Part shown: positions 37,522 to 62,891 of the stretch, piece by piece
Layout: each line of letters opens with the position of its first letter
How positions within the stretch are numbered: position 1 is the first letter of the stretch
NCBI GenBank assembly: GCA_050174305.1
Contig: JBFXJZ010000009.1
Location: 34,148-98,147 of the forward strand
Length of the DNA stretch: 64,000 nucleotides
Reading direction: 5' to 3'
Origin: Pyrinomonadaceae bacterium
GTDB taxonomy: Bacteria > Acidobacteriota > Blastocatellia > Pyrinomonadales > Pyrinomonadaceae
The notes under the pieces: generated by a model
What the model was told of the DNA's origin: nothing
What the model saw: the letters and a program-made list of their open reading frames with translations, nothing else
Databases searched by the model: none
Translations under genes and position numbers: made by a program

Positions 37522-37689
37522 ATGGAAGAAATTGACGCAAAAAAAACTGAGAAATTTGTCAAAGAAGTCATGATGACTGAGCGACGATATGGAACCGACC
37601 AGAAGAATCAGAAGTCGAATCGCCAAAGCGATATCCGAGACTGTCTTGAAAAGTTTGTTGTCAAGGAATTAAGCGATGAAGATAAATAG
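37522..37689 (+). CDS. Possible 55-aa leader ORF overlapping the ATPase start
   Basis: Hand-translated as MEEIDAKKTEKFVKEVMMTERRYGTDQKNQKSNRQSDIRDCLEKFVVKELSDEDK. It ends at TAG 37687-37689, 14 nt into the next gene. It is below the ORF-track length cutoff and I saw no clear RBS. Confidence 0.25.
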   Translation: MEEIDAKKTEKFVKEVMMTERRYGTDQKNQKSNRQSDIRDCLEKFVVKELSDEDK

Positions 37690-48120: not shown

Positions 48121-49216
48121 GTTCCCCCTGTAGGAATGCGTACTCACGTTTTTGCTCTTCGACCGAGAGAGCCAATCCCATTTCTTTCTTTATTACGTTC
48201 ACTGTCAAAGTCACGCTCGCTTCTGATTTGGAAATACGACCTCCGATCATGGCACGTCCCTCCCAAAGTCTTGTGTTCGAGCGAGACCAATCGATTTTCC
48301 TTAGTTTAGATAGCTTTTTTTTCCACTCTCGTGGCTTTTCGCGGAGAAGAATATGGCCCACTTTTCCTATTGCTTGTAATGCGATTCCATGCGAGTGAAT
48401 ATATCTAGTTCGGATTTCACTTGCGGGTATCTTTCGCTCCAATACCTGATGCCACTCCGGGAAACTTTGTGCTACCTCGTACCAAAATGGGACGGCTACT
48501 TGCGATTTTAGATCCAGACTACTTTCGTCATTTGGTGAAAACATTGCACATGTTGCGGTATAGATCGCACTCAATGTGAATAACTTTCGAGAACGCAATG
48601 ACAACGTACTTTTCTCCATATCTACTACGTCTCTAAACAATGGGGTTTTTAGTGCAATTAATTTAGCCAGTTTTGCCATTTGATCACGATGATCATATAA
48701 GACGCCGATCGATTTCGAAGGGCGAATAGCATACCGATTCAAATCAGCAAACATTTGTTGGCATCGATCTAGTCCCCTGTCTACAAAAAAAACCACCGCA
48801 ATACTTTCGTCGCCAATCTCAGGATGTTCTTGTATTGCCATCTCAATCGCAGCCCTTCTATGTTGACCATCATTAATAATGAAGCGCGCCGACATGGAGA
48901 CTGACAGCTTACCGATTTGCTTATCGCTTTTCCCATTCTCGGAAGTCCCGAAGGATTCGAATGCTACATCCCCGTCAATTGAAGCTGTAATAGCAGAAAA
49001 GGTGTAATCATCCGGATTATCAATGATGTAGTTGGCCATTTCGGGTAGCCGGGTCCGGTTCAACCTCCTTTGCGCTCGAATCTCAGGAGCTAATTCTTCT
49101 TCATCAAAAATGAAGATTTTGGGTATTAACCTCAGGGGACACATTGAGACAAAATATTCCCTTTTTGCTTGGATGCCCCTAATGGCTGGGAAAATATATT
49201 CAAAGGATGACGGCAT
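48110..49216 (-). CDS. dndB: DndB (DGQHR-domain regulator of dnd)
   Basis: FIINDGQHRRAAIEMA (DGQHR motif); 368 aa; first gene of the minus-strand dnd operon. Confidence 0.85.
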   Translation of the reverse strand: MPSSFEYIFPAIRGIQAKREYFVSMCPLRLIPKIFIFDEEELAPEIRAQRRLNRTRLPEMANYIIDNPDDYTFSAITASIDGDVAFESFGTSENGKSDKQIGKLSVSMSARFIINDGQHRRAAIEMAIQEHPEIGDESIAVVFFVDRGLDRCQQMFADLNRYAIRPSKSIGVLYDHRDQMAKLAKLIALKTPLFRDVVDMEKSTLSLRSRKLFTLSAIYTATCAMFSPNDESSLDLKSQVAVPFWYEVAQSFPEWHQVLERKIPASEIRTRYIHSHGIALQAIGKVGHILLREKPREWKKKLSKLRKIDWSRSNTRLWEGRAMIGGRISKSEASVTLTVNVIKKEMGLALSVEEQKREYAFLQGEHGR

Positions 49217-49272
49217 AAACAGTCGCTTCCGTTTCTATCACGGGATTGAAGGTTAATTGTATTTATATGGTC

Positions 49273-49306
49273 TGTATGTTATTTTGTCAATAGAATATAA
49301 CATACA
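49273..49306. promoter_or_regulatory. Perfect 10-bp inverted repeat in the dndA-dndB divergent region (candidate operator)
   Basis: TGTATGTTAT-N14-ATAACATACA, read directly from the sequence. It is centred in the 132-bp intergenic region. Confidence 0.35.
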
Positions 49307-49348
49307 TTTTGCTTTTTGATACACACATGTTTTGCGGGTTGATTTGTA

Positions 49349-50476
49349 ATGATTTATCTAGACTGTAATGCTACGACACCCATTGAACCGGCGGTCGTGG
49401 ATTTAGTTTTGCATTTCCTCACCGACGAATTTGGCAATGCCGGGAGTCGGACTCACGAGTTTGGCTTACGAGCTCAACGAGCCGTAGAGAAAGCACGAGA
49501 ACAAGTTGCGAAGGTAGTTACCTGCGAACCGTCGGAAGTCATATTGACCAGCGGAGCAACTGAGAGTAACAATCTTGCGATTCTCGGACTCGAAAAATTT
49601 GCTAATGAGACGGGCAAACGCCACATTATCAGTACCGAAATTGAACACAAGGCGGTGCTCGAACCCCTTGAAATGTTATCGAAAAGAGGGTTTGATATTA
49701 CTCTCGTCGCTCCAGATTTAGACGGGAGCGTGTCCGCTGAGAATATTAAGGCCCGGCTGAGGGAAGATACGATTCTTGTTTCCGTAATGCATGTTAACAA
49801 CGAAACCGGTGTTATTCAGCCGATCACCGACATAGTTAATATCTTGGACGGGCACCCGGCATTTTTGCACGTCGATGCTGCTCAGGGTTTCGGTAAAGAC
49901 ATTCCGACATTACAAAGTCGTCGCATCGATCTAATCAGCATTAGCGGTCACAAGATATATGCTCCTAAAGGAATCGGTGCCTTAATCGTCCGTAGACGGG
50001 GCTATGATCGTCTTCCGATACAACCTCTTATGGTTGGTGGTGGGCAAGAACAAGGCCTACGTCCAGGAACTCTCCCGGTCCATCTTGCCGTTGGTCTTGG
50101 ACTAGCTTCTGAATTGGCAATTAAGAACTTTAGTCAACGTCAAGCTGATTGTAAGAAGTTTAGAGACCGCTTATTATGCGAATTGCTTCCTTTGAATCCC
50201 GTGATAAATGGCGATCTGAAGATGTCTTTACCTAACGTGGTGAATTTGTCTTTTCTTGGGATTGATTCTGAGGCTTTAATGCTCGCGTTAAAGAACGAAA
50301 TTGCGATTTCCAATGGCTCGGCGTGCACTGCTCACCTGTATAAACCGAGTCATGTACTAAAAGCGATGGGTTTAGACGACGATTCTATCCAGACTGCGGT
50401 GCGTCTTTCGTGGTGTCACCTGACAGAGGAACCAGATTGGGTCCGGGTTACGAAAATCGTCAGTTCTCTATCGTAG
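49349..50476 (+). CDS. dndA: Cysteine desulfurase DndA (IscS/NifS family)
   Basis: IYLDCNATTP, SGATESNN, PLP-lysine context SGHKIYAPKGIGAL and catalytic Cys SNGSACTA. It is divergent from dndB. Confidence 0.9.
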   Translation: MIYLDCNATTPIEPAVVDLVLHFLTDEFGNAGSRTHEFGLRAQRAVEKAREQVAKVVTCEPSEVILTSGATESNNLAILGLEKFANETGKRHIISTEIEHKAVLEPLEMLSKRGFDITLVAPDLDGSVSAENIKARLREDTILVSVMHVNNETGVIQPITDIVNILDGHPAFLHVDAAQGFGKDIPTLQSRRIDLISISGHKIYAPKGIGALIVRRRGYDRLPIQPLMVGGGQEQGLRPGTLPVHLAVGLGLASELAIKNFSQRQADCKKFRDRLLCELLPLNPVINGDLKMSLPNVVNLSFLGIDSEALMLALKNEIAISNGSACTAHLYKPSHVLKAMGLDDDSIQTAVRLSWCHLTEEPDWVRVTKIVSSLS

Positions 50477-50631: not shown

Positions 50632-51696
50632 CTAACTGTCAAGTCGCTTTACTGCCTCAAGCATAAGCTCCGCGTCGGTTTCCGCGTAGATGTTTGTAAT
50701 GCTCATGTCCGAATGGGCAAAGAGATTCTGGACTATGAGGGGATTTGTATTTCTACGAATTAATTCGCTGGCAAAGTAGGTTCTTAAGTCGTGGAAATGA
50801 TAGTTTTCTTCTCTTGTGCCGTCTGGCTTGTTGATCTTGGCTCTTATGAGAGCCGGATGCCAGCGTTTTCGGAAATCGACAATTGGAAATGGAAGCTGTT
50901 TGTCGGCGATTAGGTCCCGTAAAACCGATGCCGCGGTTGCATTGATCGGTACGGATCGCGGAGGTCGTCCCTTCGAACCAATTACCCATACCCTTTGATT
51001 CTCAAAATCGATCACATCCTCGTTCAAAGCCAATAACTGGCCGCGGCGCAATGGCATGTTAACGGCCAATTGGACAAGCCTGTATAGCAGCTGATCGGAT
51101 TCGAGCTCCTTCCACAACGCTTTCTTCTGCTCGGTCGTAAGTAGGCGCTTTCGTGGTGGCGGCTCTGGAAGGGACTTTACATACTGCATCGGATTGCGAT
51201 CAAGAACGTCTTCCTCACAAGCGAGACTGAAGATCTTCGACAAAGTCGACATGATCCTATTGATGGAGGAAGGAGAGATCGAACTTTTCTTTTTTCGCTG
51301 GTTTTTCCCGTACTGAAGTTTGTCCCGGCAATCGCGACAATCCTGTGGCGTGATGGTGTGCAGAGGTTGATCCTTTAGGTTTTTCAAAAGGAGTTTTATG
51401 TAAAGATTCTTCGCCCCCTTATTGACGTTGTTTTGCTCTACATATTTTCGATAGGTTGTTTCTACGAAGTCTCCAAAAGTTAAAGTCGTATCCGCTTGTC
51501 CGAAAGATCTGTCGAATAGCCGCTTGACCAGTTGGCGCTCGGCGAGTTCAGCTTCTTCCTTAGTACGGGCTGTCGGAATAACCTGATGAATAGTCTTATG
51601 CCCTTTAACTCGTCTGTATACCCACCAGCGAGCTGCTGCATACGCCGGATGCTTAGCGTTTATCCGCTTACCGTTATACTTCTTAAAAACTGACAT
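50632..51696 (-). CDS. Tyrosine site-specific integrase
   Basis: The C-terminal catalytic region has RRGQLLAL (Arg I), HFHDLRTYF (H-x-x-R) and AHSDMSITNIYA (His...Tyr). Confidence 0.9.
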   Translation of the reverse strand: MSVFKKYNGKRINAKHPAYAAARWWVYRRVKGHKTIHQVIPTARTKEEAELAERQLVKRLFDRSFGQADTTLTFGDFVETTYRKYVEQNNVNKGAKNLYIKLLLKNLKDQPLHTITPQDCRDCRDKLQYGKNQRKKKSSISPSSINRIMSTLSKIFSLACEEDVLDRNPMQYVKSLPEPPPRKRLLTTEQKKALWKELESDQLLYRLVQLAVNMPLRRGQLLALNEDVIDFENQRVWVIGSKGRPPRSVPINATAASVLRDLIADKQLPFPIVDFRKRWHPALIRAKINKPDGTREENYHFHDLRTYFASELIRRNTNPLIVQNLFAHSDMSITNIYAETDAELMLEAVKRLDS

Positions 51697-51700
51697 ACGC

Positions 51701-51955
51701 TTAGTAATTCGCTAACCAGGCATCCACCTCAGTTCTATTAAAAGTTGGCCGGCCCACTCCGTGGAACGGTAAACCATTTTTTCGCATCCATCGATTGATC
51801 GTTGCACTAGATTTCTTCAGATATTTTGCGACTTCGGACTTCGTCATAATCTGGGGCGGCTGAGATGAGTGAATTGCTTTCTCGATTGCTCCCGCGACAG
51901 AGGTATCGATCAAACGAATCAGCTCAGCTTTTTCTATCGTGATAATTTCAACCAT
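51701..51955 (-). CDS. Excisionase / MerR-like HTH DNA-binding protein
   Basis: 84 aa, MTKSEVAKYLKKSSATINRWMRKNGLPF. It lies immediately upstream of the integrase. Confidence 0.7.
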   Translation of the reverse strand: MVEIITIEKAELIRLIDTSVAGAIEKAIHSSQPPQIMTKSEVAKYLKKSSATINRWMRKNGLPFHGVGRPTFNRTEVDAWLANY

Positions 51956-52222: not shown

Positions 52223-52299
52223 TGGTCGGGACGACAAGATTTGAACTTGCGACCTCTCGCACCCCAAGCGAACGCGCTACCAGACTGCGCTACGTCCCG
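52223..52299 (-). tRNA. tRNA-Pro (anticodon GGG), canonical
   Basis: Reverse complement: CGGGACG TA GCGC AGTCTGGTA GCGC G TTCGC TTGGGGT GCGAG AGGTC GCAAG TTCAAAT CTTGT CGTCCCG A CCA. All four stems pair, and C1:G72 is typical of Pro. Confidence 0.9.
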
Positions 52300-52343: not shown

Positions 52344-52844
52344 TCACTGATTTCTTAGGTGTTCGGCCGCCCGTTCCGTCTGATCGGTCTTCAACATCTC
52401 ACGAAGCTCAAGCAATTGTGCGCCTAGCGCCCGCAGCGCCTCGCGGCCTTCCCTGGACAGGCCTTCAGACGCCATCGCTCGCGAAAGTGTCTCCTCCGGC
52501 AATTCGAGGTCGAAAAGAGCCGGATCCGCGGCCGGTGAACTTGCAGGACCTTCAGCCGCTGCGTCAGGCTTGCTTTTGCCGTTTTCCTTCAACTCCGACT
52601 GAAGCTTTTTTCGTGCCCCGGCGATAGTGTAGAGCTCATCATAAAGCAGCTCTTTTATCCGAAGTGAGATCTCGACGTCCCGCCGTCGATAGCTTCGTTG
52701 GCCAGATCGGTTCTTTTGCGGGGCGAGTTGCGGAAATTCCGTCTCCCAATAACGGAGGACATGGGCCTGAACGTCGAGGATGTCGCATACCTCGCCGATC
52801 TTGAAGTATATTTTCTCAGGTATTACTACAGGTTCCCGATTCAT
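52344..52844 (-). CDS. MerR-family transcriptional regulator
   Basis: [25 protein letters not shown]...[12 protein letters not shown] (MerR HTH). Confidence 0.85.
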
Positions 52845-52927: not shown

Positions 52928-53884
52928 ATGGTTTCGGAGTTTGACTTCATAAAGAACATTAAGGCGAAATACGGCCTTCGCGGTATCGGCGACGACTGTG
53001 CGATCCTCCCGAAAAACGACGAGTCAGACACCGTGATCACCGCCGATTTACTCGTCGAGGACATCCATTTTCGTCTCAATTGGACCTCGCCCGGATTGTT
53101 GGGAGCGAAAGTGTTGGCGGTTTCACTCTCGGACATTGCCGCGATGGGTGCCGAGCCGACGTGGGCGATGCTGTCGTTCGCCGTAACCGACTCGGTTTGG
53201 AATAGCGATTTCCTCGAGAAATTCTACGAAGGATGGTTTACGCTGGCCCGTCGTCACAACGTCGAACTGGTCGGAGGCGATGTTTCGCGAACGGCCGGAA
53301 AGATCGTTTTCGATTCGATCGTCGGCGGCAAGGTACCAACCGGAAAGGCAATCTTGCGGAGCGGGGCCCAGGTCGGCGACTCGATCTTCGTCACCGGTCC
53401 GCTTGGCGGAGCAGCCGGCGGCCTGATGATGCTCGAATCCGGTATCAAATACGGGACGGCTGACCCCGCCCGGCAAGCTTTGATAACGAAACAATTGCGA
53501 CCGGTGCCCAGGATCGAGATCGGTAACCAGCTCAGGGAAGCGGGCCTCGTGGACACGATGATCGACCTGAGCGACGGGCTCTCCTCTGACCTACGACACA
53601 TTTGCAATGCCAGCCACGTCGGTGCTCGTCTATACGCGAATGACATTCCGATCTGCCCTGATCTGACAAAGATCGGTGTCGCCCACGACCAGGCCCTTAC
53701 ATTGGCGCTAAACGGCGGCGAGGATTTCGAGCTTCTGTTCACATCAAAGGACGCTGAAATTTCTTTGCCCGGCCAATCGGACATCTACCGTATCGGTGAG
53801 ATCACCGCAAATGAAGGGGTGATTGAAGTTATCGGTAGCGAAGAGTTCGAGGTACTGCAGCCTGGTGGCTATCGCCATTTCTAA
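52928..53884 (+). CDS. thiL: Thiamine-monophosphate kinase
   Basis: EFDFIKNIK..GIGDDCAIL..ADLLVEDIHF, GGDVSRT and DLSDGLSSDL (AIR-synthase-like fold). Confidence 0.9.
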   Translation: MVSEFDFIKNIKAKYGLRGIGDDCAILPKNDESDTVITADLLVEDIHFRLNWTSPGLLGAKVLAVSLSDIAAMGAEPTWAMLSFAVTDSVWNSDFLEKFYEGWFTLARRHNVELVGGDVSRTAGKIVFDSIVGGKVPTGKAILRSGAQVGDSIFVTGPLGGAAGGLMMLESGIKYGTADPARQALITKQLRPVPRIEIGNQLREAGLVDTMIDLSDGLSSDLRHICNASHVGARLYANDIPICPDLTKIGVAHDQALTLALNGGEDFELLFTSKDAEISLPGQSDIYRIGEITANEGVIEVIGSEEFEVLQPGGYRHF

Positions 53885-53912: not shown

Positions 53913-53943
53913 TTGACACGGAATTTTGACCTGTGTTTATAAT
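53913..53943 (+). promoter_or_regulatory. Sigma70-like promoter candidate
   Basis: TTGACA (53913-53918) and TATAAT (53938-53943). The spacer is 19 bp, longer than optimal. Confidence 0.25.
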
Positions 53944-54156
53944 CCTCCCTGCTTCGCACCGGCGGAGTAATTTTTTTGGAGATAGTTTGATGATTCGAAG
54001 ATCGATACATAGCATCACGACCCTCACAGGCACGTCGACCGCGTTAGATATGCGGTTCGATATGGCCTGGGACGGAGCGGTCTGCTTCGGACTCGAACAG
54101 CCGAATTATCAACCCAAACAGCGCGGCACGGATCGCGCGGTAGAACCAGATTAAAA

Positions 54157-54287
54157 CAGCGGGAGCGGCGTTCCCGCTCCCGAAACATCGAAAGCAGGAC
54201 GAGCATATCGTCCGGTGATTTTTAGGAGCGGTTACGCCGGGGATATTGGAAGCCCGAGAGTAGCCGCTCCTTTTACTTTCGATGTTT
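54157..54287. ncRNA. Candidate structured RNA: hairpin plus three-way junction, class unknown
   Basis: Hand-folded. An 8-bp hairpin GGGAGCGG/CCGCTCCC (54161-54181). P1 is a 12-bp helix AAACATCGAAAG (54183-94) / CTTTCGATGTTT (54276-87). It encloses P2 GGACGA/TCGTCC (54197-54213) and P3 AGGAGCGG/CCGCTCCT (54224-54271). The strand is undetermined. Confidence 0.25.
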
Positions 54288-54312: not shown

Positions 54313-54384
54313 GTGACAAGGGGCAAGTGACGAGTGACTAGCCGATAGCATTGCTCATCACTTGTCACTCGTCCCTAGTCACTC
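54313..54384. repeat. Heptanucleotide tandem-repeat hairpin 1 (GTGACNN units)
   Basis: Left arm GTGACAA GGGGCAA GTGACGA GTGACTA. Right arm TCACTTG TCACTCG TCCCTAG TCACTC, the complementary heptads. A T7 run and then tRNA-Arg follow. Confidence 0.8.
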
Positions 54385-54391
54385 TTTTTTT

Positions 54392-54469
54392 GGAGACGTA
54401 GCTCAACGGAATCAGAGCGCCTCGCTTCGAACGAGGGGGTTGGAGGTTCGAATCCTTCCGTCTTCGCCA
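54392..54469 (+). tRNA. tRNA-Arg (anticodon TCG)
   Basis: GGAGACG TA GCTC AACGGAATCA GAGC G CCTCG CTTCGAA CGAGG GGGTT GGAGG TTCGAAT CCTTC CGTCTTC G CCA. Canonical cloverleaf with CCA encoded. Confidence 0.85.
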
Positions 54470-54481
54470 ATTTTCAAACAC

Positions 54482-54557
54482 GGGGATGAATGCAAAGCGT
54501 CGCGCGTCCAGTTTTTCAAGCTGGCCCTAGCGGGTTCGAGTCCCGCCTTCCCTACCA
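54482..54557 (+). tRNA. tRNA-Glu-like (anticodon TTC), non-canonical D region
   Basis: 76 nt that fit standard numbering. The T arm GCGGG TTCGAGT CCCGC and the anticodon arm CCAGT TTTTCAA GCTGG are fine. However it has A8 instead of U8, D-loop AAGCGTCG without the G18-G19 pair, a 13:22 A-C mismatch and a 6:67 T-T mismatch. Confidence 0.5.
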
Positions 54558-54559
54558 GG

Positions 54560-55063
54560 TCAGAGGATCAGTTCGTAGTGAAATTCGTCTTCGGTGATCC
54601 CATCGTTCCAAACTTTTTCGGTTACGTGGGTAAGCGAGAATCCAAACTTCTGATTGGCTGATCTTGACGCAAGATTTGACGCCCGATGGGAAATGATGAG
54701 CCGTGCGACGGTTGGATGCTCTCGAGCCCAGTTGATCCTCGCCTTGTAGAACATTTTAGATAGTCCCTTTCCTCTAATTTCTGGGTCCAGCCACGATCCC
54801 CACAGAATGGCAGTGCGGTTACTCGGGTCGTCCCGGTAGACCGATACGCCCGTGATACCCATCGGCAGCGTCCGAGCGAACAGTACAAAGATCGCGACTG
54901 CCTCATCCTTAAGCGATTCTTGCCACTGGACAACTGACTGATCTGCCTCTCGGTCGTAGTTCGAACCAAACACAAGTGGGTCTGTCGCAAGGGCTTTGAG
55001 GCGGATCTGCCTGAAGATCTCCCAATCGTCCTTTTCCAGTTTTCTGATCGTATATTCAGACAC
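54560..55063 (-). CDS. GNAT-family N-acetyltransferase
   Basis: 168 aa from GTG 55063, with acetyl-CoA motif A WLDPEIRGKGLSKMF. The 259-aa track ORF reads back through three tRNA genes, so it was trimmed. No obvious RBS. Confidence 0.6.
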   Translation of the reverse strand: MSEYTIRKLEKDDWEIFRQIRLKALATDPLVFGSNYDREADQSVVQWQESLKDEAVAIFVLFARTLPMGITGVSVYRDDPSNRTAILWGSWLDPEIRGKGLSKMFYKARINWAREHPTVARLIISHRASNLASRSANQKFGFSLTHVTEKVWNDGITEDEFHYELIL

Positions 55064-55086
55064 TGGGCAAAATATAACAGCACTAC

Positions 55087-55161
55087 TTCGGGGTCGTCTA
55101 ACCGGCAGGACGGCTGGCTCTGAACCAGTAGATGGAGGTTCAAATCCTTCCCCCGAAGCCA
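55087..55161 (+). tRNA. tRNA-Gln (anticodon CTG)
   Basis: TTCGGGG TC GTCT AACCGGCA GGAC G GCTGG CTCTGAA CCAGT AGAT GGAGG TTCAAAT CCTTC CCCCGAA G CCA. U1:A72 and G73 are as in bacterial tRNA-Gln. Confidence 0.85.
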
Positions 55162-55171
55162 ACATATTTAC

Positions 55172-55249
55172 CAGAGCGTTCCGCAGAAGGCTATACGGGC
55201 TTGCCTTGGAAGCAAGTGTTCGCAGGTTCGAATCCTGCCGCTCTGACCA
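55172..55249 (+). tRNA. tRNA-Pro (anticodon TGG)
   Basis: CAGAGCG TT CCGC AGAAGGCTAT ACGG G CTTGC CTTGGAA GCAAG TGTTC GCAGG TTCGAAT CCTGC CGCTCTG A CCA. C1:G72; there is a 13:22 C-A mismatch. Confidence 0.75.
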
Positions 55250-55257
55250 TACTTCCC

Positions 55258-55332
55258 GCCGGGATAGCTCAAATGGCAAGCAGCATCTGTCTTGTAAACA
55301 GAAGGTTCTGAGTTCAAATCTCAGTCCCGGCC
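55258..55332 (+). tRNA. tRNA-Thr (anticodon TGT)
   Basis: GCCGGGA TA GCTC AAATGGCAAG CAGC A TCTGT CTTGTAA ACAGA AGGTT CTGAG TTCAAAT CTCAG TCCCGGC C. It has a 13:22 C-C mismatch. This is the only array member without an encoded CCA. Confidence 0.7.
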
Positions 55333-55339
55333 AGTTCAC

Positions 55340-55416
55340 GCACGCGTGGCCAAAACGGCAAAGGCGCCGGTCTTAGAAACCGGATATTGAAGGTTCGAAT
55401 CCTTCCGCGTGTACCA
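55340..55416 (+). tRNA. tRNA with Leu anticodon TAG but a class-I (short variable arm) body
   Basis: GCACGCG TG GCCA AAACGGCAA AGGC G CCGGT CTTAGAA ACCGG ATATT GAAGG TTCGAAT CCTTC CGCGTGT A CCA. The variable region is 5 nt, whereas bacterial tRNA-Leu normally has a long extra arm. The D arm and anticodon stem resemble class-II Ser/Leu tRNAs. Confidence 0.6.
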
Positions 55417-55432
55417 CTTTGTTAGTTGCGAC

Positions 55433-55497
55433 TTTCGAGTTTCAAGTTTCGGGATCAACTTCTTTTGACTCCAGACTTGGAACTCGAAACTCGAAAC
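55433..55497. repeat. Heptanucleotide tandem-repeat hairpin 2 (TTTCNAG units)
   Basis: Left arm TTTCGAG TTTCAAG TTTCGGG. Right arm CTCGAAA CTCGAAA. It lies upstream of tRNA-Cys. Confidence 0.75.
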
Positions 55498-55505
55498 TAA
55501 TTCGG

Positions 55506-55582
55506 GCGGGTATAGCCAAGCGGCCAAAGGCGGCGGTCTGCAAAACCGTTAATCATCGGTTCAAATCCGATTACCCGCTCCA
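55506..55582 (+). tRNA. tRNA-Cys (anticodon GCA)
   Basis: GCGGGTA TA GCCA AGCGGCCAA AGGC G GCGGT CTGCAAA ACCGT TAATC ATCGG TTCAAAT CCGAT TACCCGC T CCA. U73 is the Cys discriminator. Confidence 0.8.
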
Positions 55583-55655
55583 ACTGTTTCGAGTCCCGGC
55601 TTCAGCCGGCCAACGCGAAAAGAACTGCCAGCTAAAGCTGGTACTCAAAACTTCA

Positions 55656-55733
55656 TGTGGATCGTAGCTCAATCGGCAGAGCACCTCACTGTGAATGAGG
55701 CCGTTGCAGGTTCAAATCCGGTCGATCCACCCA
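55656..55733 (+). tRNA. tRNA-His (anticodon GTG) with encoded G-1
   Basis: G(-1) TGGATCG TA GCTC AATCGGCA GAGC A CCTCA CTGTGAA TGAGG CCGTT GCAGG TTCAAAT CCGGT CGATCCA C CCA. It has the G-1:C73 pair. One A-G mismatch sits in the T stem, and 1:72 is U:A. Confidence 0.75.
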
Positions 55734-55753
55734 AAACAACAGTGGCGAGTGTT

Positions 55754-55815
55754 CAGTGGTCAGTGATCAGAGACTTCCGAGTGACTGACCACTGGTCACT
55801 GGTAACTGACCACTG
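55754..55815. repeat. Heptanucleotide tandem-repeat hairpin 3 (NNCACTG units)
   Basis: Left arm CAGTGGT CAGTGAT CAG. Right arm GTGACTG ACCACTG GTCACTG GTAACTG ACCACTG. It lies upstream of tRNA-Asp. Confidence 0.8.
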
Positions 55816-55820
55816 ACGAA

Positions 55821-55896
55821 GGGGCCGTGGCAGAAAGGCGTATGCACTTCGCTGTCGACGAAGACGATGACGGTTCGAATCCGTTCGGTCCCGCCA
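55821..55896 (+). tRNA. tRNA-Asp (anticodon GTC)
   Basis: GGGGCCG TG GCAG AAAGGCGT ATGC A CTTCG CTGTCGA CGAAG ACGAT GACGG TTCGAAT CCGTT CGGTCCC G CCA. G73 is present; there is a 13:22 mismatch. Confidence 0.75.
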
Positions 55897-55907
55897 GTTT
55901 CACAAAA

Positions 55908-55982
55908 GGACGCTTAGCTGAGACAGATCAGCGGCGGCCCGAAAAGCCGAAGAGCTTGGCGCGATACCAAGAGCGTCCACCA
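55908..55982 (+). tRNA. tRNA-Phe-like (anticodon GAA) lacking canonical T-loop and D-loop signatures
   Basis: GGACGCT TA GCTG AGACAGAT CAGC G GCGGC CCGAAAA GCCGA AGAG CTTGG CGCGATA CCAAG AGCGTCC A CCA. All stems pair except 27:43. The T-loop is CGCGATA (no T54-Psi55-C56), the D-loop has no GG, and position 33 is C. Confidence 0.45.
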
Positions 55983-56157
55983 ATCACTCAAAAAACCCGC
56001 CCGCTCACGCAGGCGGCACTGACAGGAGGCAAAACCTATGTCTGCACTTACGAGTTGCAACATTATCGCGACGTGACTGTTCAGCTTTTCCTAGTTCGCT
56101 GAAAGTTCGTCGCAAGAAACCAACATCTTTCAGCACATCAACATTGAGGAAAAGAAA

Positions 56158-56505
56158 ATGAGCAAGAAATACCACGTTCAAAAGAAGGAGTTTCTGAACA
56201 TGTTCCCGACATGGCGAGCCTACATAATCGCTTCCGTCGAAGACACCAGCGAGGTTTCGCGGTGCTGCAGCGATCACAGCGAGGCCGCCGGTCACGTTCA
56301 CTTCGAACTCGCGTCCTGCCACGACGAGATCGAACTTCACTTCTCGCTCGCGACCGCGGAAGAACGTGACAACAGCCTCTACAAGGCGAATAAACTCGCC
56401 GAGGTTATAGCCGCCTTCCGCGATGCGATCGAGAAGGAGATCGCGATCATAAACGAACGCCACTCGACGCAGCAGCAAGCTCGCGCATCGTCGGCCGTTC
56501 ACTGA
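56158..56505 (+). CDS. Hypothetical 115-aa protein inside the tRNA array
   Basis: GAGGAAAAG RBS. It contains a Cys/His-rich stretch, CCSDHSEAAGHVHFELASCHDE. I prefer it over the overlapping 172-aa minus-strand ORF, which has no RBS and an odd composition. Confidence 0.5.
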   Translation: MSKKYHVQKKEFLNMFPTWRAYIIASVEDTSEVSRCCSDHSEAAGHVHFELASCHDEIELHFSLATAEERDNSLYKANKLAEVIAAFRDAIEKEIAIINERHSTQQQARASSAVH

Positions 56506-56523
56506 TTCTCCGACCCGTCGCAC

Positions 56524-56551
56524 CCGGCCGCTTCGATCGGCAAGCGGCCGG
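56524..56551 (+). terminator. Stem-loop after the 115-aa ORF (possible terminator)
   Basis: A 10-bp stem CCGGCCGCTT/AAGCGGCCGG with an 8-nt loop. The T-rich stretch starts only ~15 nt downstream, so this is a weak intrinsic-terminator call. Confidence 0.35.
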
Positions 56552-56779
56552 CACTGGTTGGAATTATTTAGTTTTCAAACATCACAACGTCTTACCTGAC
56601 TAAACGCGGATCTCGCGGGACCGGTGAGGACAAGGGAATGAACTAATACATACCTTGGCCCGCAACGGGCCTGTTCGTCCTTTGTCCGACGAAGCCGGCC
56701 CCGCACCGCGTTTGCCTACCGTTTTTGTGACAAGCTTTTTCAGCTTGTCGCCGCAGACTGGGAGGTCTGCTCTATTTGC

Positions 56780-56856
56780 CCGCCGGTGGCCAAGCTGGTT
56801 AAGGCACTCGCCTTTTAAGCGAGGGAGCGTGGGTTCGAATCCCACCCGGCGGACCA
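56780..56856 (+). tRNA. tRNA-Lys (anticodon TTT)
   Basis: CCGCCGG TG GCCA AGCTGGTTA AGGC A CTCGC CTTTTAA GCGAG GGAGC GTGGG TTCGAAT CCCAC CCGGCGG A CCA. It has an unusual C1:G72 and a Ser/Leu-like D arm. Confidence 0.7.
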
Positions 56857-56865
56857 TTCTGAAAA

Positions 56866-56949
56866 GGATGAAGGCGGAAGGTTGAAGGATGAAACAAAGA
56901 TTATTCACGATTAACCGTTCGTCCCTCATCCTTCATCCTTCATCCTTCC
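56866..56949. repeat. Heptanucleotide tandem-repeat hairpin 4 (GGNNGAA / CTTCATC units)
   Basis: Left arm GGATGAA GGCGGAA GGTTGAA GGATGAA. Right arm CCTCATC CTTCATC CTTCATC CTTCC. It lies upstream of tRNA-Met. Confidence 0.8.
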
Positions 56950-56951
56950 AG

Positions 56952-57026
56952 GGCGGCGTAGCTCAGCGGAAGAGCAAAGGTCTCATAAACCTTGGGTCGG
57001 AGGTTCAAATCCTCCCGCCGCAACCA
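56952..57026 (+). tRNA. tRNA with CAT anticodon (Met or Ile2), with a 1:72 mismatch
   Basis: GGCGGCG TA GCTC AGCGGAA GAGC A AAGGT CTCATAA ACCTT GGGTC GGAGG TTCAAAT CCTCC CGCCGCA A CCA. It has a G1-A72 mismatch and an initiator-like GCAACCA end, but only two G:C pairs at the base of the anticodon stem. Confidence 0.7.
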
Positions 57027-57052: not shown

Positions 57053-58303
57053 ATGCCATATAACAAGCTAAATATCAGCGGAGGACAGGCTGATGTCCTT
57101 TCGTGGGTCACTCACGGGCTGGACTATCAGGAAGAGAATATGCTCCGCAATGTCTCGCGTCTGCCGTGCCTTTACAAGCACGTTGCCCTGATGCCGGACG
57201 CTCATCTTGGGAAAGGTTCGATGGTCGGGTCGGTCATCGCGACCAAAGACGCTGTTATTCCGGCGACCGTCGGTGTCGACATCGGATGCGGGATGATGGC
57301 CGTAAAGACACCGTTCAAGAGCGGGATTCTCGATCGCAAGATGGCGGAGTTCCGACACGAGATCGAGCGGGCCATCCCGACCGGTTTCAATGCCTACAAG
57401 GAATCGGTTGACGAAGCGTCGCGTTGGGAAGGATTCGATACGTTCGAAGATCTTCACCCGAAGATTCAGGACCGTAAGCGGAAGTCGATGGTCCAGCTCG
57501 GAACGCTCGGCGGAGGTAACCACTTCATCGAGGTCTGTCTGGATACCGAAGACAACGTCTGGCTGATGCTGCATTCGGGATCGCGAAACATCGGTAAAGA
57601 ACTTGCCGAACGACACATCGCGACCGCGAAAACGCTTCATAAGCTGAACGAACTTCCGTCGCCTGACCTGGCTTACTTCATCAAGGGTACCGACGAGTTT
57701 CAGGCCTATTGGCACGACCTCGACTGGGCCCAAAAGTACGCGATGAAGAACCGTGAGATCATGATGAAGCGTCTGATCAAATCGATCAATCGTATGTTTA
57801 ATGCAAGTCTCGACATCGACCACGCGATCGCCACCACCCCGTCCGCCGAGGCGGCGGCCACCCCTCCTAAGACAGGAGGGGAGCGTTCGCAGATCGAAAT
57901 TGTCGTTAACTGTCATCACAACTACGTCGCTGTCGAGGAGCACTTCGGCGATAAGGTTTACGTTACCCGAAAGGGTGCGATAAATGCCGAAACCGGACGC
58001 TACGGGATCATCCCTGGTTCGATGGGAGCGAAGTCTTTCATCATCCGCGGCCTGGGAAATCCCCAGGCGTTCAACTCGTGCTCGCACGGTGCGGGACGAA
58101 AGATGTCGCGTACTAAGGCGAAAGCGAAGTACACCATCGATGATCTGAAGAAGCAGACCGCTGGCGTCGAGTGCCGAAAGGACAAAGGCGTCGTCGATGA
58201 GATCCCCGCTGCCTATAAGGACATCGAGGAAGTCATGCGTGCTCAGGACGACCTCGTCGAGATCGTCGCCGAGCTAAAACAGGTCATCTGCGTCAAGGGG
58301 TAA
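57053..58303 (+). CDS. rtcB: RNA 3'-phosphate/5'-OH ligase RtcB
   Basis: MPDAHLGKGSMVGS, DIGCGM, GGGNHFIE, HSGSRNIG, NCHHNY, PGSMG and SCSHGAGR are all present. An AAGGAGG RBS precedes it. Confidence 0.92.
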   Translation: MPYNKLNISGGQADVLSWVTHGLDYQEENMLRNVSRLPCLYKHVALMPDAHLGKGSMVGSVIATKDAVIPATVGVDIGCGMMAVKTPFKSGILDRKMAEFRHEIERAIPTGFNAYKESVDEASRWEGFDTFEDLHPKIQDRKRKSMVQLGTLGGGNHFIEVCLDTEDNVWLMLHSGSRNIGKELAERHIATAKTLHKLNELPSPDLAYFIKGTDEFQAYWHDLDWAQKYAMKNREIMMKRLIKSINRMFNASLDIDHAIATTPSAEAAATPPKTGGERSQIEIVVNCHHNYVAVEEHFGDKVYVTRKGAINAETGRYGIIPGSMGAKSFIIRGLGNPQAFNSCSHGAGRKMSRTKAKAKYTIDDLKKQTAGVECRKDKGVVDEIPAAYKDIEEVMRAQDDLVEIVAELKQVICVKG

Positions 58304-58381
58304 ATGCAGAGGCCCGACCGTCAGGGAGGGCTTAACTATCAAGTCGATCGTTAAGCCCTAGCTCACGCGCGGGCTTCCGCA

Positions 58382-58411
58382 TTCGTCGCCGAACTGAAGC
58401 AGGTCATTTGA
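58382..58411 (+). pseudogene. Relic of a second rtcB 3' end
   Basis: TTCGTCGCCGAACTGAAGCAGGTCATTTGA (FVAELKQVI*) against the rtcB end 58262-58290, ATCGTCGCCGAGCTAAAACAGGTCATCTG (IVAELKQVI...). After the first codon, the four remaining nucleotide differences are synonymous third-position changes. Confidence 0.55.
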
Positions 58412-58763: not shown

Positions 58764-59222
58764 ATGAAAATAGCAGAAGCACTTATTCTACGATCGGATA
58801 TACAGAAGCGGATCGAGCAGCTTCGTCACCGGTTGACGAACAACGCAAAGGTCCAGGAAGGCGACGCTCCGGCGGAGAAGCCGGAGGCACTTTTGAAGGA
58901 GCTTGAAGGCTCCGCGGTCGAGCTTGAGAAGCTGATCAAGCGTATCAACAAGACGAATTCGGCAACCGAGTTTGCCAAGGGCCGAACGGTGACCGATGCC
59001 CTGGCCGAGCGGGATGTTCTCCTGCTTCGCAAGGGTGTCTACAGCGGGCTGGTAGACGCGGCAACGGTTACGCAGCAGCTTTACAGCCGCTCTGAGATCA
59101 AATTCGTCGCTACTGTGAACGTCGGCCGCACGCAAAAGCAGGCGGACGCGCTCGCCAAGCAGTACCGCGAACTGGACGCGAAGATCCAGGAATTTAACTG
59201 GAAGACCGATCTCGCCGGGTGA
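58764..59222 (+). CDS. DIP1984-family-like small helical protein (tentative)
   Basis: 152 aa, MKIAEALILRSDIQKRIEQLRHRL..NAKVQEGDAPAEKPEALL...RINKTN...ALAERDVL. The GGAGG RBS is clear. The family name is from memory of the sequence pattern and is unverified. Confidence 0.5.
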   Translation: MKIAEALILRSDIQKRIEQLRHRLTNNAKVQEGDAPAEKPEALLKELEGSAVELEKLIKRINKTNSATEFAKGRTVTDALAERDVLLLRKGVYSGLVDAATVTQQLYSRSEIKFVATVNVGRTQKQADALAKQYRELDAKIQEFNWKTDLAG

Positions 59223-61278: not shown

Positions 61279-61621
61279 ATTGCCCTCACGGAAAAGCGCC
61301 GACCGTTCGGCAGCTGTCGAAAATCCAGATGGTTGGGTTGAGGGTTTGTTATACACCGAAATCCGACCTAAAGCCATCTAACGATCGGAAATAGCATAGA
61401 ACGTTGGCCTGTGCCGCTGACAGATCGGCCGAGCCGAGCAGACCGTGTTCCGGAAGCCCGGGATCCGGTCATTCAATATGTAGGATTAATTTCTCGTTAA
61501 CGCCCATATATTGTGCTTGCCTAAAATAAACATTTGATATTACATTACAGGTAAGGAAATGATGACGGGCCGGCCGCCGATGGCGGGCCGGCAAATACGA
61601 CCCGAGCCTGAAAGGAGGAAG

Positions 61622-62185
61622 ATGAGTTTGTTGACCGGACGAGTATTACTGTTGAACTTTTCGTACGAGCCTCTCGGTACTGTCGGCGTGGCTCGTGCTG
61701 TCTGCCTTTGGTTTCGCGGCGCGGTTTATGTCGAGGAAAACGACGGCGACAATTGTTTGCACTCGCCCTCGACGACATTTCCCGTTCCATCGGTGATCAG
61801 GCTTCGCCACTACATCCACGTCCGCCGTAACCGCCCCGAAACCACGATGAAGCGTGCCCGGGTTTACATCCGTGACCGCTACCGCTGCCAGTACTGCGGC
61901 GAGCATCGTCATGCGAAGGACCTGACGCTCGATCACATCCTGCCTCGGGCCCAGGGCGGCGAAAGCACGCCGGCCAATCTGGTGACCGCTTGCGTAAAAT
62001 GCAACCAGCGAAAGGGCAACCGTACGCCCGAGCAGGCCCGCATGCCGCTGCTCACGTCGCAAAAGCTGCTTCGCCTCGGCTTGGATCACGTCCTTCTTTG
62101 CCACTATGCCGAATCGCGGCCTGAGTGGAAGAAGTATCTGTTCATGGACGATAATGACGAGGCCGCGAACCGTGCGGCGGCCTGA
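61622..62185 (+). CDS. HNH endonuclease
   Basis: CQYCG...LTLDHILPRAQGG...NLVTACVKCNQRKGN. The start is set at MSLLTGR (ATG 61622), preceded by AAAGGAGG. Confidence 0.85.
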   Translation: MSLLTGRVLLLNFSYEPLGTVGVARAVCLWFRGAVYVEENDGDNCLHSPSTTFPVPSVIRLRHYIHVRRNRPETTMKRARVYIRDRYRCQYCGEHRHAKDLTLDHILPRAQGGESTPANLVTACVKCNQRKGNRTPEQARMPLLTSQKLLRLGLDHVLLCHYAESRPEWKKYLFMDDNDEAANRAAA

Positions 62186-62333
62186 TCTCCTTTCATTTTG
62201 CGTCTAATATGTTGAGAGGGCGGCTGGTCTGATCGATCGGCCGCTTCTTTCTTATTGCAAGTTCGCAAACGGACCCGTCTTTTCAGGACCGTTCGTGATC
62301 GGCTATTCAGTTGTCCAATGGGGTGGAAATGTT

Positions 62334-62891
62334 ATGAAATTGCTCTTCATCTATGGACCGCCGGCGGTCGGTAAACTCACGGTCGCAAAGGAGGTTGCGA
62401 AGCTGACCGGATTCAAGGTGTTTCACAACCACCTGAGCATCGATGCGATCCTACCCGTCTTTGAATTCGCTTCCGAACCTTTCAATAAACTGGTCGAACT
62501 TATCCGGGTCGAAACGGTCGCGGAGGCGGCGAGGCGTGGCGTCGATCTTATCTATACTTTCTGTTACGCGAAGGGCCTGGACGAGATGCACGTTGAGGCG
62601 GTCGAAAAGGCAGCCCGCGAAAACGGCGGTGAGGTTCATTTCGTACTTCTCACCTGCGAACCGGATGAACTGAGACGCCGTGTCGTCCTCGAAGACAGGC
62701 TCCAGTTCCGAAAAGCTAACACGGTGGAAATGATGAATAAGTTCCTCGAAACCTACGACCTGACGGAGCCGATCCCATATGCTGACACCATTGTGATCGA
62801 CAATACGGAGCTTTCACCCGAGAACGCTGCCGCCCGGATCGTTGCGAGTACGGGACTAAAGGCGGCCAGCGGATTGAATAACCAACAGTAA
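62334..62891 (+). CDS. P-loop NTPase / kinase-like protein
   Basis: MKLLFIYGPPAVGKLTVAKE (Walker A); ~185 aa. Confidence 0.6.
   Translation: MKLLFIYGPPAVGKLTVAKEVAKLTGFKVFHNHLSIDAILPVFEFASEPFNKLVELIRVETVAEAARRGVDLIYTFCYAKGLDEMHVEAVEKAARENGGEVHFVLLTCEPDELRRRVVLEDRLQFRKANTVEMMNKFLETYDLTEPIPYADTIVIDNTELSPENAAARIVASTGLKAASGLNNQQ

Follow-up and report, generated by a model that had tools for sequence, protein, structure and literature searches.

The closest described counterparts of the locus analyzed here are the L-arrays, long, non-periodic and supernumerary tRNA arrays that are spread by horizontal transfer (PMC8421152). The array of Anabaena PCC 7120 is silent under standard conditions, is induced by translational stress and has a conserved HNH gene upstream, and rtcB, which neighbors L-arrays in some species, is co-regulated with it (PMC8421152); the trn operon is under the control of the repressor TrcR, as are rtcB, the HNH gene, GNATs and an AAA ATPase (PMC10272220). 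In mycobacteria, tRNA array units have a single conserved HNH gene embedded in them, and their tRNAs are redundant with those of the chromosome (PMC12803027). The function of accessory tRNA arrays in bacteria is largely open, with the Anabaena array linked to translational stress, and to rtcB by co-regulation only, and a 2021 survey listed Acidobacteria among the phyla without L-arrays (PMC8421152). Here we describe a compact array of twelve tRNA genes, followed closely by rtcB, in a 64-kb stretch of DNA (the window) from a metagenome-assembled genome of Pyrinomonadaceae (Acidobacteriota), analyzed together with related loci. We consider it probable that this is a supernumerary tRNA array of the L-array lineage that is now a fixed chromosomal operon with rtcB in Pyrinomonadaceae, which would extend L-arrays to Acidobacteriota and indicate that such arrays can be domesticated and vertically inherited.

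All twelve tRNA or tRNA-like genes lie on the plus strand within 2.6 kb (54392–57026), and all score above the gathering threshold of the Rfam tRNA model RF00005 (29 bits). Ten were found by ARAGORN at default settings, with limits identical to those of the sequence-only reading, which had folded the same twelve genes by hand with the same anticodons, and these ten reach 51–71 bits in Rfam (E 1e-8 to 1e-13). The other two fall below the ARAGORN default threshold: a non-canonical, Glu-like gene with anticodon TTC (54482–54557; 31.8 bits over 54482–54554) and a non-canonical, Phe-like gene with anticodon GAA (55908–55982; 39.9 bits over 55908–55979, visible only under permissive filters). With its threshold lowered, ARAGORN folds both into cloverleaves, scoring 94 and 87, respectively, versus 112–124 for the other ten. 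From 5′ to 3′ the array consists of tRNA-Arg(TCG) (54392–54469; ARAGORN 121.8, Rfam 63.6 bits; the slot is ACG in most relatives), the Glu-like gene, tRNA-Gln(CTG) (55087–55161; U1-A72, G73), tRNA-Pro(TGG) (55172–55249; C1-G72, A73), a tRNA with the Thr anticodon TGT (55258–55332), a type-I tRNA with the Leu anticodon TAG (55340–55416; 77 nucleotides (nt), G1·U72, A73; Rfam 68 bits), tRNA-Cys(GCA) (55506–55582; U73), tRNA-His(GTG) (55658–55733; encoded G-1 and C73, read from the sequence), tRNA-Asp(GTC) (55821–55896; G73, G37), the Phe-like gene, tRNA-Lys(TTT) (56780–56856; C1-G72, A73; Rfam 70.6 bits) and a tRNA with anticodon CAT (56952–57026). As first noted, and as seen both in the sequence and in the ARAGORN folds, no anticodon is repeated and CCA is encoded in eleven of the twelve, the TGT gene being the sole one without it. 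An antisense GNAT gene, a small protein gene (ORF115, for open reading frame of 115 codons) and a structured RNA interrupt the array, leaving blocks of two, eight and two genes. Twelve tandem, co-oriented tRNA genes within 2.6 kb, one per anticodon, agree with what is expected of an L-array (about ten or more such genes, near enough for co-transcription, with essentially one gene per anticodon), and a duplicated anticodon occurs in just 3 of 30 related arrays.

Homology as well as layout connects this array to those described before. An HNH endonuclease gene of the L-array-associated family (61559–62185, plus strand; Pfam HNH_5, 5e-17) was searched against plasmids by tblastn (61559–62182), and the matches examined with their flanks are the HNH genes of Nostoc PCC 7120 pCC7120delta (35% identity, 2e-17), Mycobacterium intracellulare (46%, 4e-24), Acidiphilium multivorum (37%, 9e-22) and Acaryochloris marina (41%, 8e-28). 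ARAGORN finds 24 (Nostoc), 28 (M. intracellulare) and 37 (Acidiphilium) tRNAs beside or around the matching gene, and no tRNA within 10 kb of the one in A. marina. In the Nostoc 7120 and M. intracellulare arrays, Leu(UAG) has the same type-I layout, G1·U72 and A73 as in the window. Because of the HNH homology and of this shared type-I Leu(UAG) with G1·U72, we regard the array as a variant of the L-array or tRNA array unit. A type-I-length Leu is also present among other array Leu genes, including those of viral contigs with RtcB and arrays, and the charging of a type-I tRNA-Leu by a bacterial leucyl-tRNA synthetase has a precedent in Streptomyces (PMC6614811).

The resemblance to the Nostoc/Anabaena L-array (Santamaria-Gomez et al. 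2021, PMC8421152; PMC10272220) extends to tandem co-oriented tRNAs, mostly one per anticodon and non-periodic, to a homologous HNH gene, a type-I-length Leu and a Leu(UAG) with G1·U72, to the presence of some odd or non-functional members, and to rtcB, GNAT and P-loop ATPase genes in the neighborhood or regulon. The array of the window is smaller (12 genes versus 26), and whereas cyanobacterial L-arrays are sprinkled on plasmids, that of Pyrinomonadaceae is chromosomal, occupies a fixed syntenic locus and is inherited throughout the family. The rtcB gene of Anabaena is distant and co-regulated, while that of Pyrinomonadaceae belongs to the array unit, 27 nt downstream. Anabaena uses operators of TrcR, a ribbon–helix–helix repressor, whereas the window has a leader ORF and a structured RNA (no search for a TrcR homologue was made). 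The mycobacterial tRNA array units (Yano et al. 2026, PMC12803027) are alike in having an HNH gene in or beside the array, with 46% identity to the M. intracellulare plasmid copy, in array tRNAs whose D, anticodon and variable arms are unlike those of their chromosomal counterparts, and in a type-I-length Leu(UAG) with G1·U72; two of their unusual anticodons, Arg-GCG and Ile-TAT, are seen again in the larger arrays of Pyrinomonadaceae. In contrast, they sit at varying sites on giant linear plasmids or phages and are discussed as anti-defense cargo, and rtcB, Rsr or a leader is unreported there (PMC12803027). New relative to the L-arrays compared here are the position of rtcB 27 nt after the last tRNA, the addition of Ro60/Rsr with YrlA, or of GOLLD, in relatives, an upstream leader that is conserved across relatives, and two elements within the array, namely a gene for a small protein and a structured RNA hairpin.

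The related loci were obtained by scanning one genome per species for relatives of the window's RtcB, which gave more than 589 matches, and the best 80 (68–87% identity; individual loci carry handles such as L013) were analyzed. All are from Acidobacteriota, labeled Pyrinomonadaceae, Blastocatellia or Chloracidobacterium, except one record named 'uncultured bacterium'. Complete Pyrinomonadaceae chromosomes with the locus include OZ244151.1, OZ244585.1 and CAVXPU010000005.1. The array occupies the same site across these 80 loci, with variable tRNA content and no anticodon that is always present. In type-1 loci, whose RtcB is at least 73% identical to that of the window, the order is tRNA-Pro(GGG) on the minus strand, merR, thiL, ~0.5 kb, the array, ORF115, the hairpin RNA, Lys, Met and in some cases Asn, optionally YrlA and rsr, then rtcB and the HNH gene. 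The tRNA slots of these loci run (Tyr), Arg(ACG/TCG), Gln(CTG/TTG), Pro(TGG), (Arg-TCT or TGT), Leu(TAG), (Glu), Cys, His, Asp, (Phe) and, further on, Lys(TTT), CAT and (Asn), with optional slots in parentheses. In type-2 loci (RtcB ~69% identical), rtcB lies within the array and has as many as 18 tRNAs before it and 16 behind it (L062).

Array size was counted in the 30 related loci that have thiL and rtcB on one contig, and ranges from 0 to 26 tRNAs with a median of 10. The commonest slot, Lys-TTT, is present in 25 of the 30, no anticodon is universal, and Asp, His, Cys and Lys are each absent from some arrays; L041 has no array tRNA at all, a single one is present in each of L016 and L026, and three are present in L012, with intact flanks in all four. 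As no genome can do without tRNAs such as His, Asp, Cys and Lys(UUU), those that lack them in the array must carry them elsewhere, and the array is therefore dispensable. As a housekeeping control we used the adjacent canonical stand-alone tRNA-Pro(GGG) (52223–52299, minus strand; ARAGORN, Rfam), which marks the left edge of the syntenic block, with identities compared on the same locus pairs. Its median identity is 95% (23 loci), versus 81–87% for most array slots, with extremes of 93% for Asp, the most conserved array member, and 75% for the Arg-TCT/TGT slot, and the array members diverge 2–4 times faster. Since array size is variable, no anticodon is universal and divergence is faster than that of tRNA-Pro(GGG), the array appears to be accessory rather than part of the core tRNA set. 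The sequence-only reading had taken arrays of this kind to be usually accessory or horizontally acquired: the number of tRNAs (0–26), their faster divergence and the HNH gene bear out the accessory character, whereas the fixed syntenic site and the native G+C content (0.53–0.55 in the array, equal to or a little higher than elsewhere in the window) speak against a recent horizontal insertion. The larger related arrays, those of L020, L039, L040 and type-2 loci, include anticodons seldom found in the core tRNA sets of bacteria (Arg-GCG, Leu-AAG and Gly-ACC) and a 'tRNA-Ile(TAT)' of an unusual 91–92 nt (for example L020:2751–2841, L039:4274–4365 and L040:6955–7046).

Of the 80 loci, 60 have the HNH gene 3′ of rtcB and in the same orientation, and in type-1 loci it is 80–98% identical to that of the window, versus 70–87% for RtcB and ~50–58% for ThiL (one exception, 91%). 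It stays beside rtcB even in array-less loci, for example L041 and L048. Because it is more conserved than RtcB and ThiL and is kept without the array, it does not behave as expected of a selfish homing endonuclease, and its conservation argues for a function in the host.

Several members had been seen to deviate from canonical tRNA structure, and the related loci indicate that these are conserved non-canonical tRNAs with compensatory stem changes rather than decaying copies. In each of 24 loci the Leu(TAG) gene is of type I, with a 5-nt variable loop, G1·U72 and A73, and the long variable arm of a canonical type-II Leu tRNA (85–90 nt) is absent from this 77-nt gene in all 24; compensatory double changes occur in 11 of its 20 base pairs across the same loci. 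The Phe-like gene is 83–97% identical in 17 loci, with an invariant odd T-loop, YGCGATA, where TTCGAAT is expected (CGCGATA in the window), and a D-loop without GG. The copies of the window and of L013 additionally carry U33C and G37A relative to the family consensus CUGAAGA, and compensatory changes affect 3 of 22 pairs of the family, in the T-stem and the anticodon stem. In 19 loci, the Glu-like gene shows G1·U72, an aberrant D-arm with a 3-bp stem and a variable discriminator, with compensatory changes in 6 of 19 pairs. The 1:72 pair of the CAT tRNA is G·A in the window or U·G among 22 loci, and 8 of 20 pairs are compensatory. With the anticodon-stem pairs A-U, A-U, G-C, G-C and U-A, the CAT gene of the window does not show the initiator hallmarks C1xA72 and three consecutive G-C anticodon-stem pairs, and it may encode either an elongator Met tRNA or an Ile2 (lysidine) tRNA.

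Compensatory stem changes were present in every family examined in this way (Leu, CAT, Glu-like and Phe-like), which argues for selection on the cloverleaf. In alignments, the anticodon loops are near-invariant within slots. The slot that holds the TGT gene in the window is Arg(TCT) in other loci, and as all its members lack CCA and have the anticodon stem in common, a shift of anticodon from Arg-TCT to TGT is suggested; anticodon switches are also found within the Arg-ACG/TCG and Gln-CTG/TTG slots.

The gene that follows the array encodes a full-length RtcB, a 3′-phosphate/5′-OH RNA ligase (57053–58303, plus strand; Pfam RtcB 1.5e-120; PHROG 1075, tRNA splicing ligase, 3.5e-138), and starts 27 nt past the CAT tRNA, behind AAGGAGG. 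An exact copy of this RtcB is encoded on contig JBFWUY010000007.1 of assembly GCA_050247035.1, and the ORF115 protein of that record is annotated as coming from a Pyrinomonadaceae bacterium. In most related loci rtcB is likewise right behind or inside the tRNA array; ~35 of the 80 loci have it 26–180 nt behind a tRNA, and in type-2 loci it lies within arrays of up to 34 tRNAs. The link of tRNA array, rtcB and HNH gene in Pyrinomonadaceae is thus physical and conserved across the 80 loci, and further RNA-related genes join it in relatives. Rsr (Ro60; TROVE and vWA_Ro60 domains) is intact in 22 of the 80, adjoining the array or rtcB (e.g. L007:7838–9463). YrlA exceeds the Rfam threshold between the last array tRNA and rsr in three of the five Rsr-bearing type-1 loci scanned (L018:7876–8006, L023:2763–2894 and L032:5310–5436), and was not found by Rfam in loci without an intact rsr. 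GOLLD RNA is present in the type-2 arrays L058 (1714–2193) and L062 (1890–2365), at 176–178 bits (threshold 150), just upstream of rtcB and with a tRNA inside, which is roughly the position of ORF115 and the hairpin RNA in type-1 loci. The window itself has no rsr by tblastn and no YrlA or GOLLD by Rfam, and is a reduced form with rtcB directly behind tRNA-CAT. The C-terminal rsr fragments that alone remain in L002 and L014 document a loss of the rsr module in the window's lineage.

The rsr-yrlBA-rtcBA operon of Salmonella and other Ro60/Y RNA loci (PMC4201824, PMC7790460) has RtcB and the theme of a response to damaged tRNA in common with this unit, as well as the Rsr and YrlA seen in relatives. 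It differs in that the Salmonella operon contains no tRNA array, while the window has no rsr or YrlA, and neither rtcA nor RtcR (CARF plus sigma-54 activator) is among the called genes or Pfam matches within ~10 kb on either side of rtcB. The RtcB of the window is of the phage/archaeal-like type, not that of E. coli or the PrfH-linked type. Its best NCBIfam model is an intein-containing RtcB relative, matched in three pieces, with no intein in the window's protein; longer rtcB matches in L021, L025, L035 and L044 (1263–1320 nt versus 1176–1203 nt elsewhere) were also noted, and insertions or inteins may occur in this RtcB clade. A recent phage origin was considered and set aside, the best IMG/VR RtcB being 52% identical, though some viral contigs pair RtcB with arrays. 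Compared with the window, L013 (JADJWM010000003.1) is 91–99% identical in MerR, ThiL, GNAT, ORF115, DUF6847, NmrA, HNH and the P-loop protein, 62% in the downstream ORF o169 and only 80% in RtcB, and its gap from tRNA-CAT to rtcB is 991 nt versus 27 nt; recombination seems to have exchanged the rtcB segment. A long imperfect hairpin with 38-nt arms, 79% complementary, lies just past the rtcB stop (58303–58383).

Upstream of the array is a previously undescribed control region. The distance from thiL to the first tRNA is nearly constant, at ~510–530 nt, or ~440 nt where Tyr precedes Arg, and we aligned this region from 24 related loci. It begins with a promoter-like site just past the thiL stop (53913–53943, plus strand), TTGACA–19 nt–TATAAT, in which both hexamers are kept in 24 loci, and which a consensus scan left unreported because of its 19-nt spacer. 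A leader ORF of 54 codons follows (53990–54154, plus strand), preceded by a conserved GGAG and uncalled as a gene in the public record, with the pattern MIRRSIH...W...C...(N/D)YQPK...DR...D up to the stop. Its start, MIRRS.H, and its (N/D)YQPK...DR motif are conserved, with a synonymously variable Pro codon (CCA/CCC/CCG). The in-frame stop codon lies exactly 6 nt before a hairpin, H1, in 24 of 24 loci (TAA in 12, TGA in 11 and TAG in one).

H1 opens a leader RNA (54161–54287, plus strand) with at least 90% identity among the 24 loci, far above the conservation of the flanking proteins (ThiL in these loci is just ~50–58% identical, apart from one case at 91%). The RNA consists of H1 (GGGAGCGG/CCGCTCCC), a long-range helix P1 (GAAACATCGAAAG/CTTTCGATGTTT), a variable hairpin P2, and P3 (AGGAGCGGTT...GCCGCTCCT and then TTTTACTTT), which is terminator-like. 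We assign it to the plus strand because the G·U pairs in P1 fit that strand only. The 3′ arm of H1 is complementary to the 5′ arm of P3, and when the first 14 nt are masked in folding (the stop codon plus 11 nt behind it, to mimic a ribosome that terminates there), the RNA refolds to pair the H1 3′ arm with the P3 5′ arm and P3 is lost. The element is present once per type-1 locus, always upstream of the array, and is kept in loci where most or all tRNAs have been lost; in L025 it lies ~0.8 kb upstream of rtcB with no tRNA between them. This geometry suggests a translation-coupled attenuator of the putative array–rtcB operon, and thereby how the unit might sense the state of translation. A literature search found no paper tying rtcB or tRNA arrays to leader-peptide attenuation.

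Ribosome-mediated attenuators and arrest-peptide leaders (trpL, pheL, tnaC, erm/cat; PMC3082878) similarly place a short leader ORF before mutually exclusive hairpins, the last of them followed by a U-run, with a stop codon fixed in position relative to the first hairpin. They act on biosynthetic or resistance genes, whereas the leader of the window lies upstream of tRNA genes and an RNA ligase, is long (54 codons), has no regulatory codon run and no clear enrichment of array-cognate amino acids, and its P1 additionally encloses the terminator stem. Three other identities were considered for the leader and rejected. A minus-strand small RNA, for which a terminator-like hairpin exists in the window, is disfavored by an unconserved U-run and by the fit of the P1 G·U pairs to the plus strand only; for a T-box or known riboswitch, Rfam gives no match even at E≤10, and the conserved UGGN loop is absent; and as a classical codon-run sensor the leader peptide shows, over 1229 codons, a mild skew only (Q, M, C and R up, K down). 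The (N/D)YQPK motif would be the only fit to a sensing of array amino acids, and this is speculation. Its (N/D)-Y-Q-P-K codons are read by tRNAs that are classically attacked by anticodon nucleases.

Two of the elements embedded in the array are conserved. ORF115 (56158–56505, plus strand) has relatives in 109 protein clusters of ~114 amino acids, and its substitutions at codon positions 1, 2 and 3 (4915, 3484 and 8568) show a coding pattern. It is found in most type-1 loci and some type-2 loci, is lineage-restricted and has a conserved C-terminal AASAVH tail; no match was found in Pfam, NCBIfam or PHROGs, and an attempt to assign a function by structure ended with an AlphaFold predicted local distance difference test (pLDDT) score of 66 and nothing below E=1 in Foldseek against the PDB. 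After ORF115 comes a conserved GC-rich hairpin (CCGGCCGC...GCGGCCGG). The structured RNA (56590–56716, plus strand), supported by folding and covariation, starts with TCTTACC and continues as a hairpin of ~115 nt that is closed by AAACGCGG/CCGCGTTTGCC and has a GCAA-capped apex. The entire intergenic region that holds it (56506–56779) has a folding z-score of −6.4. A strict pattern search found the RNA in 21 loci (the window and, for example, L017:7723–7854), with 9 of 17 pairs compensatory, and a long hairpin fold is present in the gap between ORF115 and the next tRNA of most type-1 loci. One of its internal loops, GAGG...GA(U/C)GAAGC, is reminiscent of a kink-turn. Rfam has no match to this RNA. 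It is not the Y RNA of these loci, because the true YrlA sits between the last tRNA and rsr and the hairpin persists without rsr; nor is it a convincing integron attC-like site, given a poor fit of the core motifs and the lack of an integron integrase.

The third insert, the antisense GNAT acetyltransferase gene (54560–55066, minus strand; Pfam Acetyltransf_3, 1e-12), is at this position in the window, L013 and L046 only. The spacers of the array also hold four large hairpins with arms of 22–30 nt (54319–54383, 55422–55500, 55740–55816 and 56864–56949), built of short periodic motifs such as TCATCCT, GTCACTG and AACTCGA, and these account for five of the eight long inverted-repeat pairs of the 64-kb window. 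Similar but non-homologous hairpins are seen in the spacers of related loci, and such elements may be signals for processing or small mobile hairpins.

How these parts may work together can be put in mechanistic terms. Transcription would start at the conserved promoter-like site after thiL and proceed through the leader ORF into the RNA element, where H1 and the terminator-like P3 would compete with an antiterminator formed by the H1 3′ arm and the P3 5′ arm. A ribosome at or near the leader stop, 6 nt before H1, would favor read-through, tying expression of the operon to the state of translation. The read-through transcript would carry the tRNAs, ORF115, the hairpin RNA and rtcB together, and RNase P and 3′ processing would free the tRNAs, with the large spacer hairpins possibly serving as processing or stabilizing signals. 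The freed and presumably aminoacylated tRNAs might then top up isoacceptors cut by ribotoxins or stress nucleases, or act as decoys for them, while RtcB would re-ligate cleaved tRNAs; in relatives, Ro60/Rsr with the YrlA Y RNA, or GOLLD RNA, belongs to the same array–rtcB unit. We put forward, tentatively and as a doubtful rather than a favored possibility, a single operon for the response to translation damage, made up of the array, ORF115, the hairpin RNA and rtcB and, in relatives, of Ro60/YrlA or GOLLD as well. It would be switched on by the leader-peptide attenuator and deliver nuclease-evading or decoy tRNAs (the Phe-like and type-I Leu members) together with a repair ligase. If true, this would give L-arrays, bacterial RtcB and their associated non-coding RNAs one common, testable function, and the leader ORF with its terminator/antiterminator, the type-I tRNA-Leu, the elbow of the Phe-like tRNA, ORF115 and the hairpin RNA are offered as objects for such tests.

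Could the locus instead be an ordinary, compact core tRNA operon that holds the only or main genes for these isoacceptors? In favor of this, ten members have good tRNA scores, G+C is native, the position is fixed with vertical inheritance across the family, and the largest related arrays (26–34 tRNAs) cover nearly all amino acids. Yet a core operon would not be expected to vary from 0 to 26 tRNAs at one locus, with essential isoacceptors missing from many arrays and none or one left in L041, L016 and L026, or to diverge faster than tRNA-Pro(GGG) and include non-canonical Leu, Phe-like, Glu-like and CAT members, and the Arg-GCG, Leu-AAG and Gly-ACC genes of related arrays, as well as the HNH hallmark of supernumerary arrays, make this explanation highly improbable. 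The shrinkage or loss of the array in many lineages would fit a mobile array acquired long ago whose cryptic tRNA genes, now without function, are drifting towards loss, as would the two members under the ARAGORN default threshold, the U33C and G37A changes of the Phe-like gene in the window and L013, and the long-standing report that L-arrays are poorly transcribed (PMC8421152). Such a decaying remnant is nevertheless contradicted by the covariation, with compensatory stem changes in every family examined and near-invariant anticodon loops within slots; the oddities of the Phe-like and Glu-like genes are conserved over 17–19 loci, the leader, ORF115 and hairpin RNA are conserved and rtcB is tightly linked, and we consider it quite unlikely.

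Overlapping with our preferred explanation, and compatible with it, is the idea that the tRNAs act mainly outside translation, as decoys or sponges for tRNases, as signals or substrates for RtcB and Ro, or as non-ribosomal donors. It is attractive in view of the conserved odd elbows (the YGCGATA T-loop of the Phe-like gene without G18G19, and the Glu-like D-arm), the weak or mismatched 1:72 pairs of the Leu, Glu-like and CAT genes, and the physical linkage of the array to RtcB, to Rsr with YrlA, itself a tRNA mimic, and to GOLLD; a sponge has also been proposed for Anabaena, where the operonic tRNA-Phe(GAA) is anomalous on acid gels (PMC8421152). The standard identity elements are, however, mostly kept (His G-1/C73, Cys U73, Gln U1-A72/G73 and Pro C1-G72), and 23 of 26 Anabaena array tRNAs are aminoacylated in vivo (PMC8421152). 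A mainly non-translational role is accordingly unlikely for the array as a whole, and is an open possibility especially for its Phe-like and Glu-like members.

Some of our observations also weigh against reading the locus as a supernumerary operon of the L-array lineage under leader control. The array is chromosomal and of native G+C, whereas the described L-arrays are on a plasmid, an integrative and conjugative element or a phage, and its redundancy with canonical tRNA copies elsewhere in the genome is drawn from the related loci. The antisense GNAT gene could interfere with a single long transcript, and the leader could be a separate small RNA and micro-protein gene. H1 and P3 are invariant, so they lend no covariation support and could be a DNA-level operator. 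Lastly, the geometry predicts read-through if the leader is fully translated and termination if ribosomes stall earlier, the opposite of a naive 'supply on demand'.

To the left of the array lie a merR-like gene (52344–52844, minus strand) and, just before the leader, a thiL-like gene (52928–53884). To the right of rtcB follow a gene for a DIP1984/DUF6847 family protein (58764–59222, plus strand), which recurs downstream of rtcB in L013 and five type-2 loci, an NmrA-like gene on the minus strand, and then the HNH gene. A P-loop, nucleoside monophosphate (NMP) kinase-like protein is encoded next (62295–62891, plus strand), with weak matches only (Pfam AAA_18/AAA_33 below the cut-off, adenylate kinase 5e-4), and its gene is downstream of HNH in ~10 loci. 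On the far side of tRNA-Pro(GGG) from the array, adjoining its 3′ end, we observed an island of low G+C (0.42–0.48; 28000–52200). It contains a tyrosine integrase (50632–51696) and an HTH_17 excisionase (51701–51955), both on the minus strand, dndA/B/C/D-like DNA phosphorothioation genes (44537–50476), a GmrSD-type nuclease (42312–44132), a PLD-helicase (40167–42305), an SMC-like ATPase (37676–39691), a CHAT-TPR protein (34783–37365) and a prolyl-oligopeptidase-like protein, and looks like a defense island.

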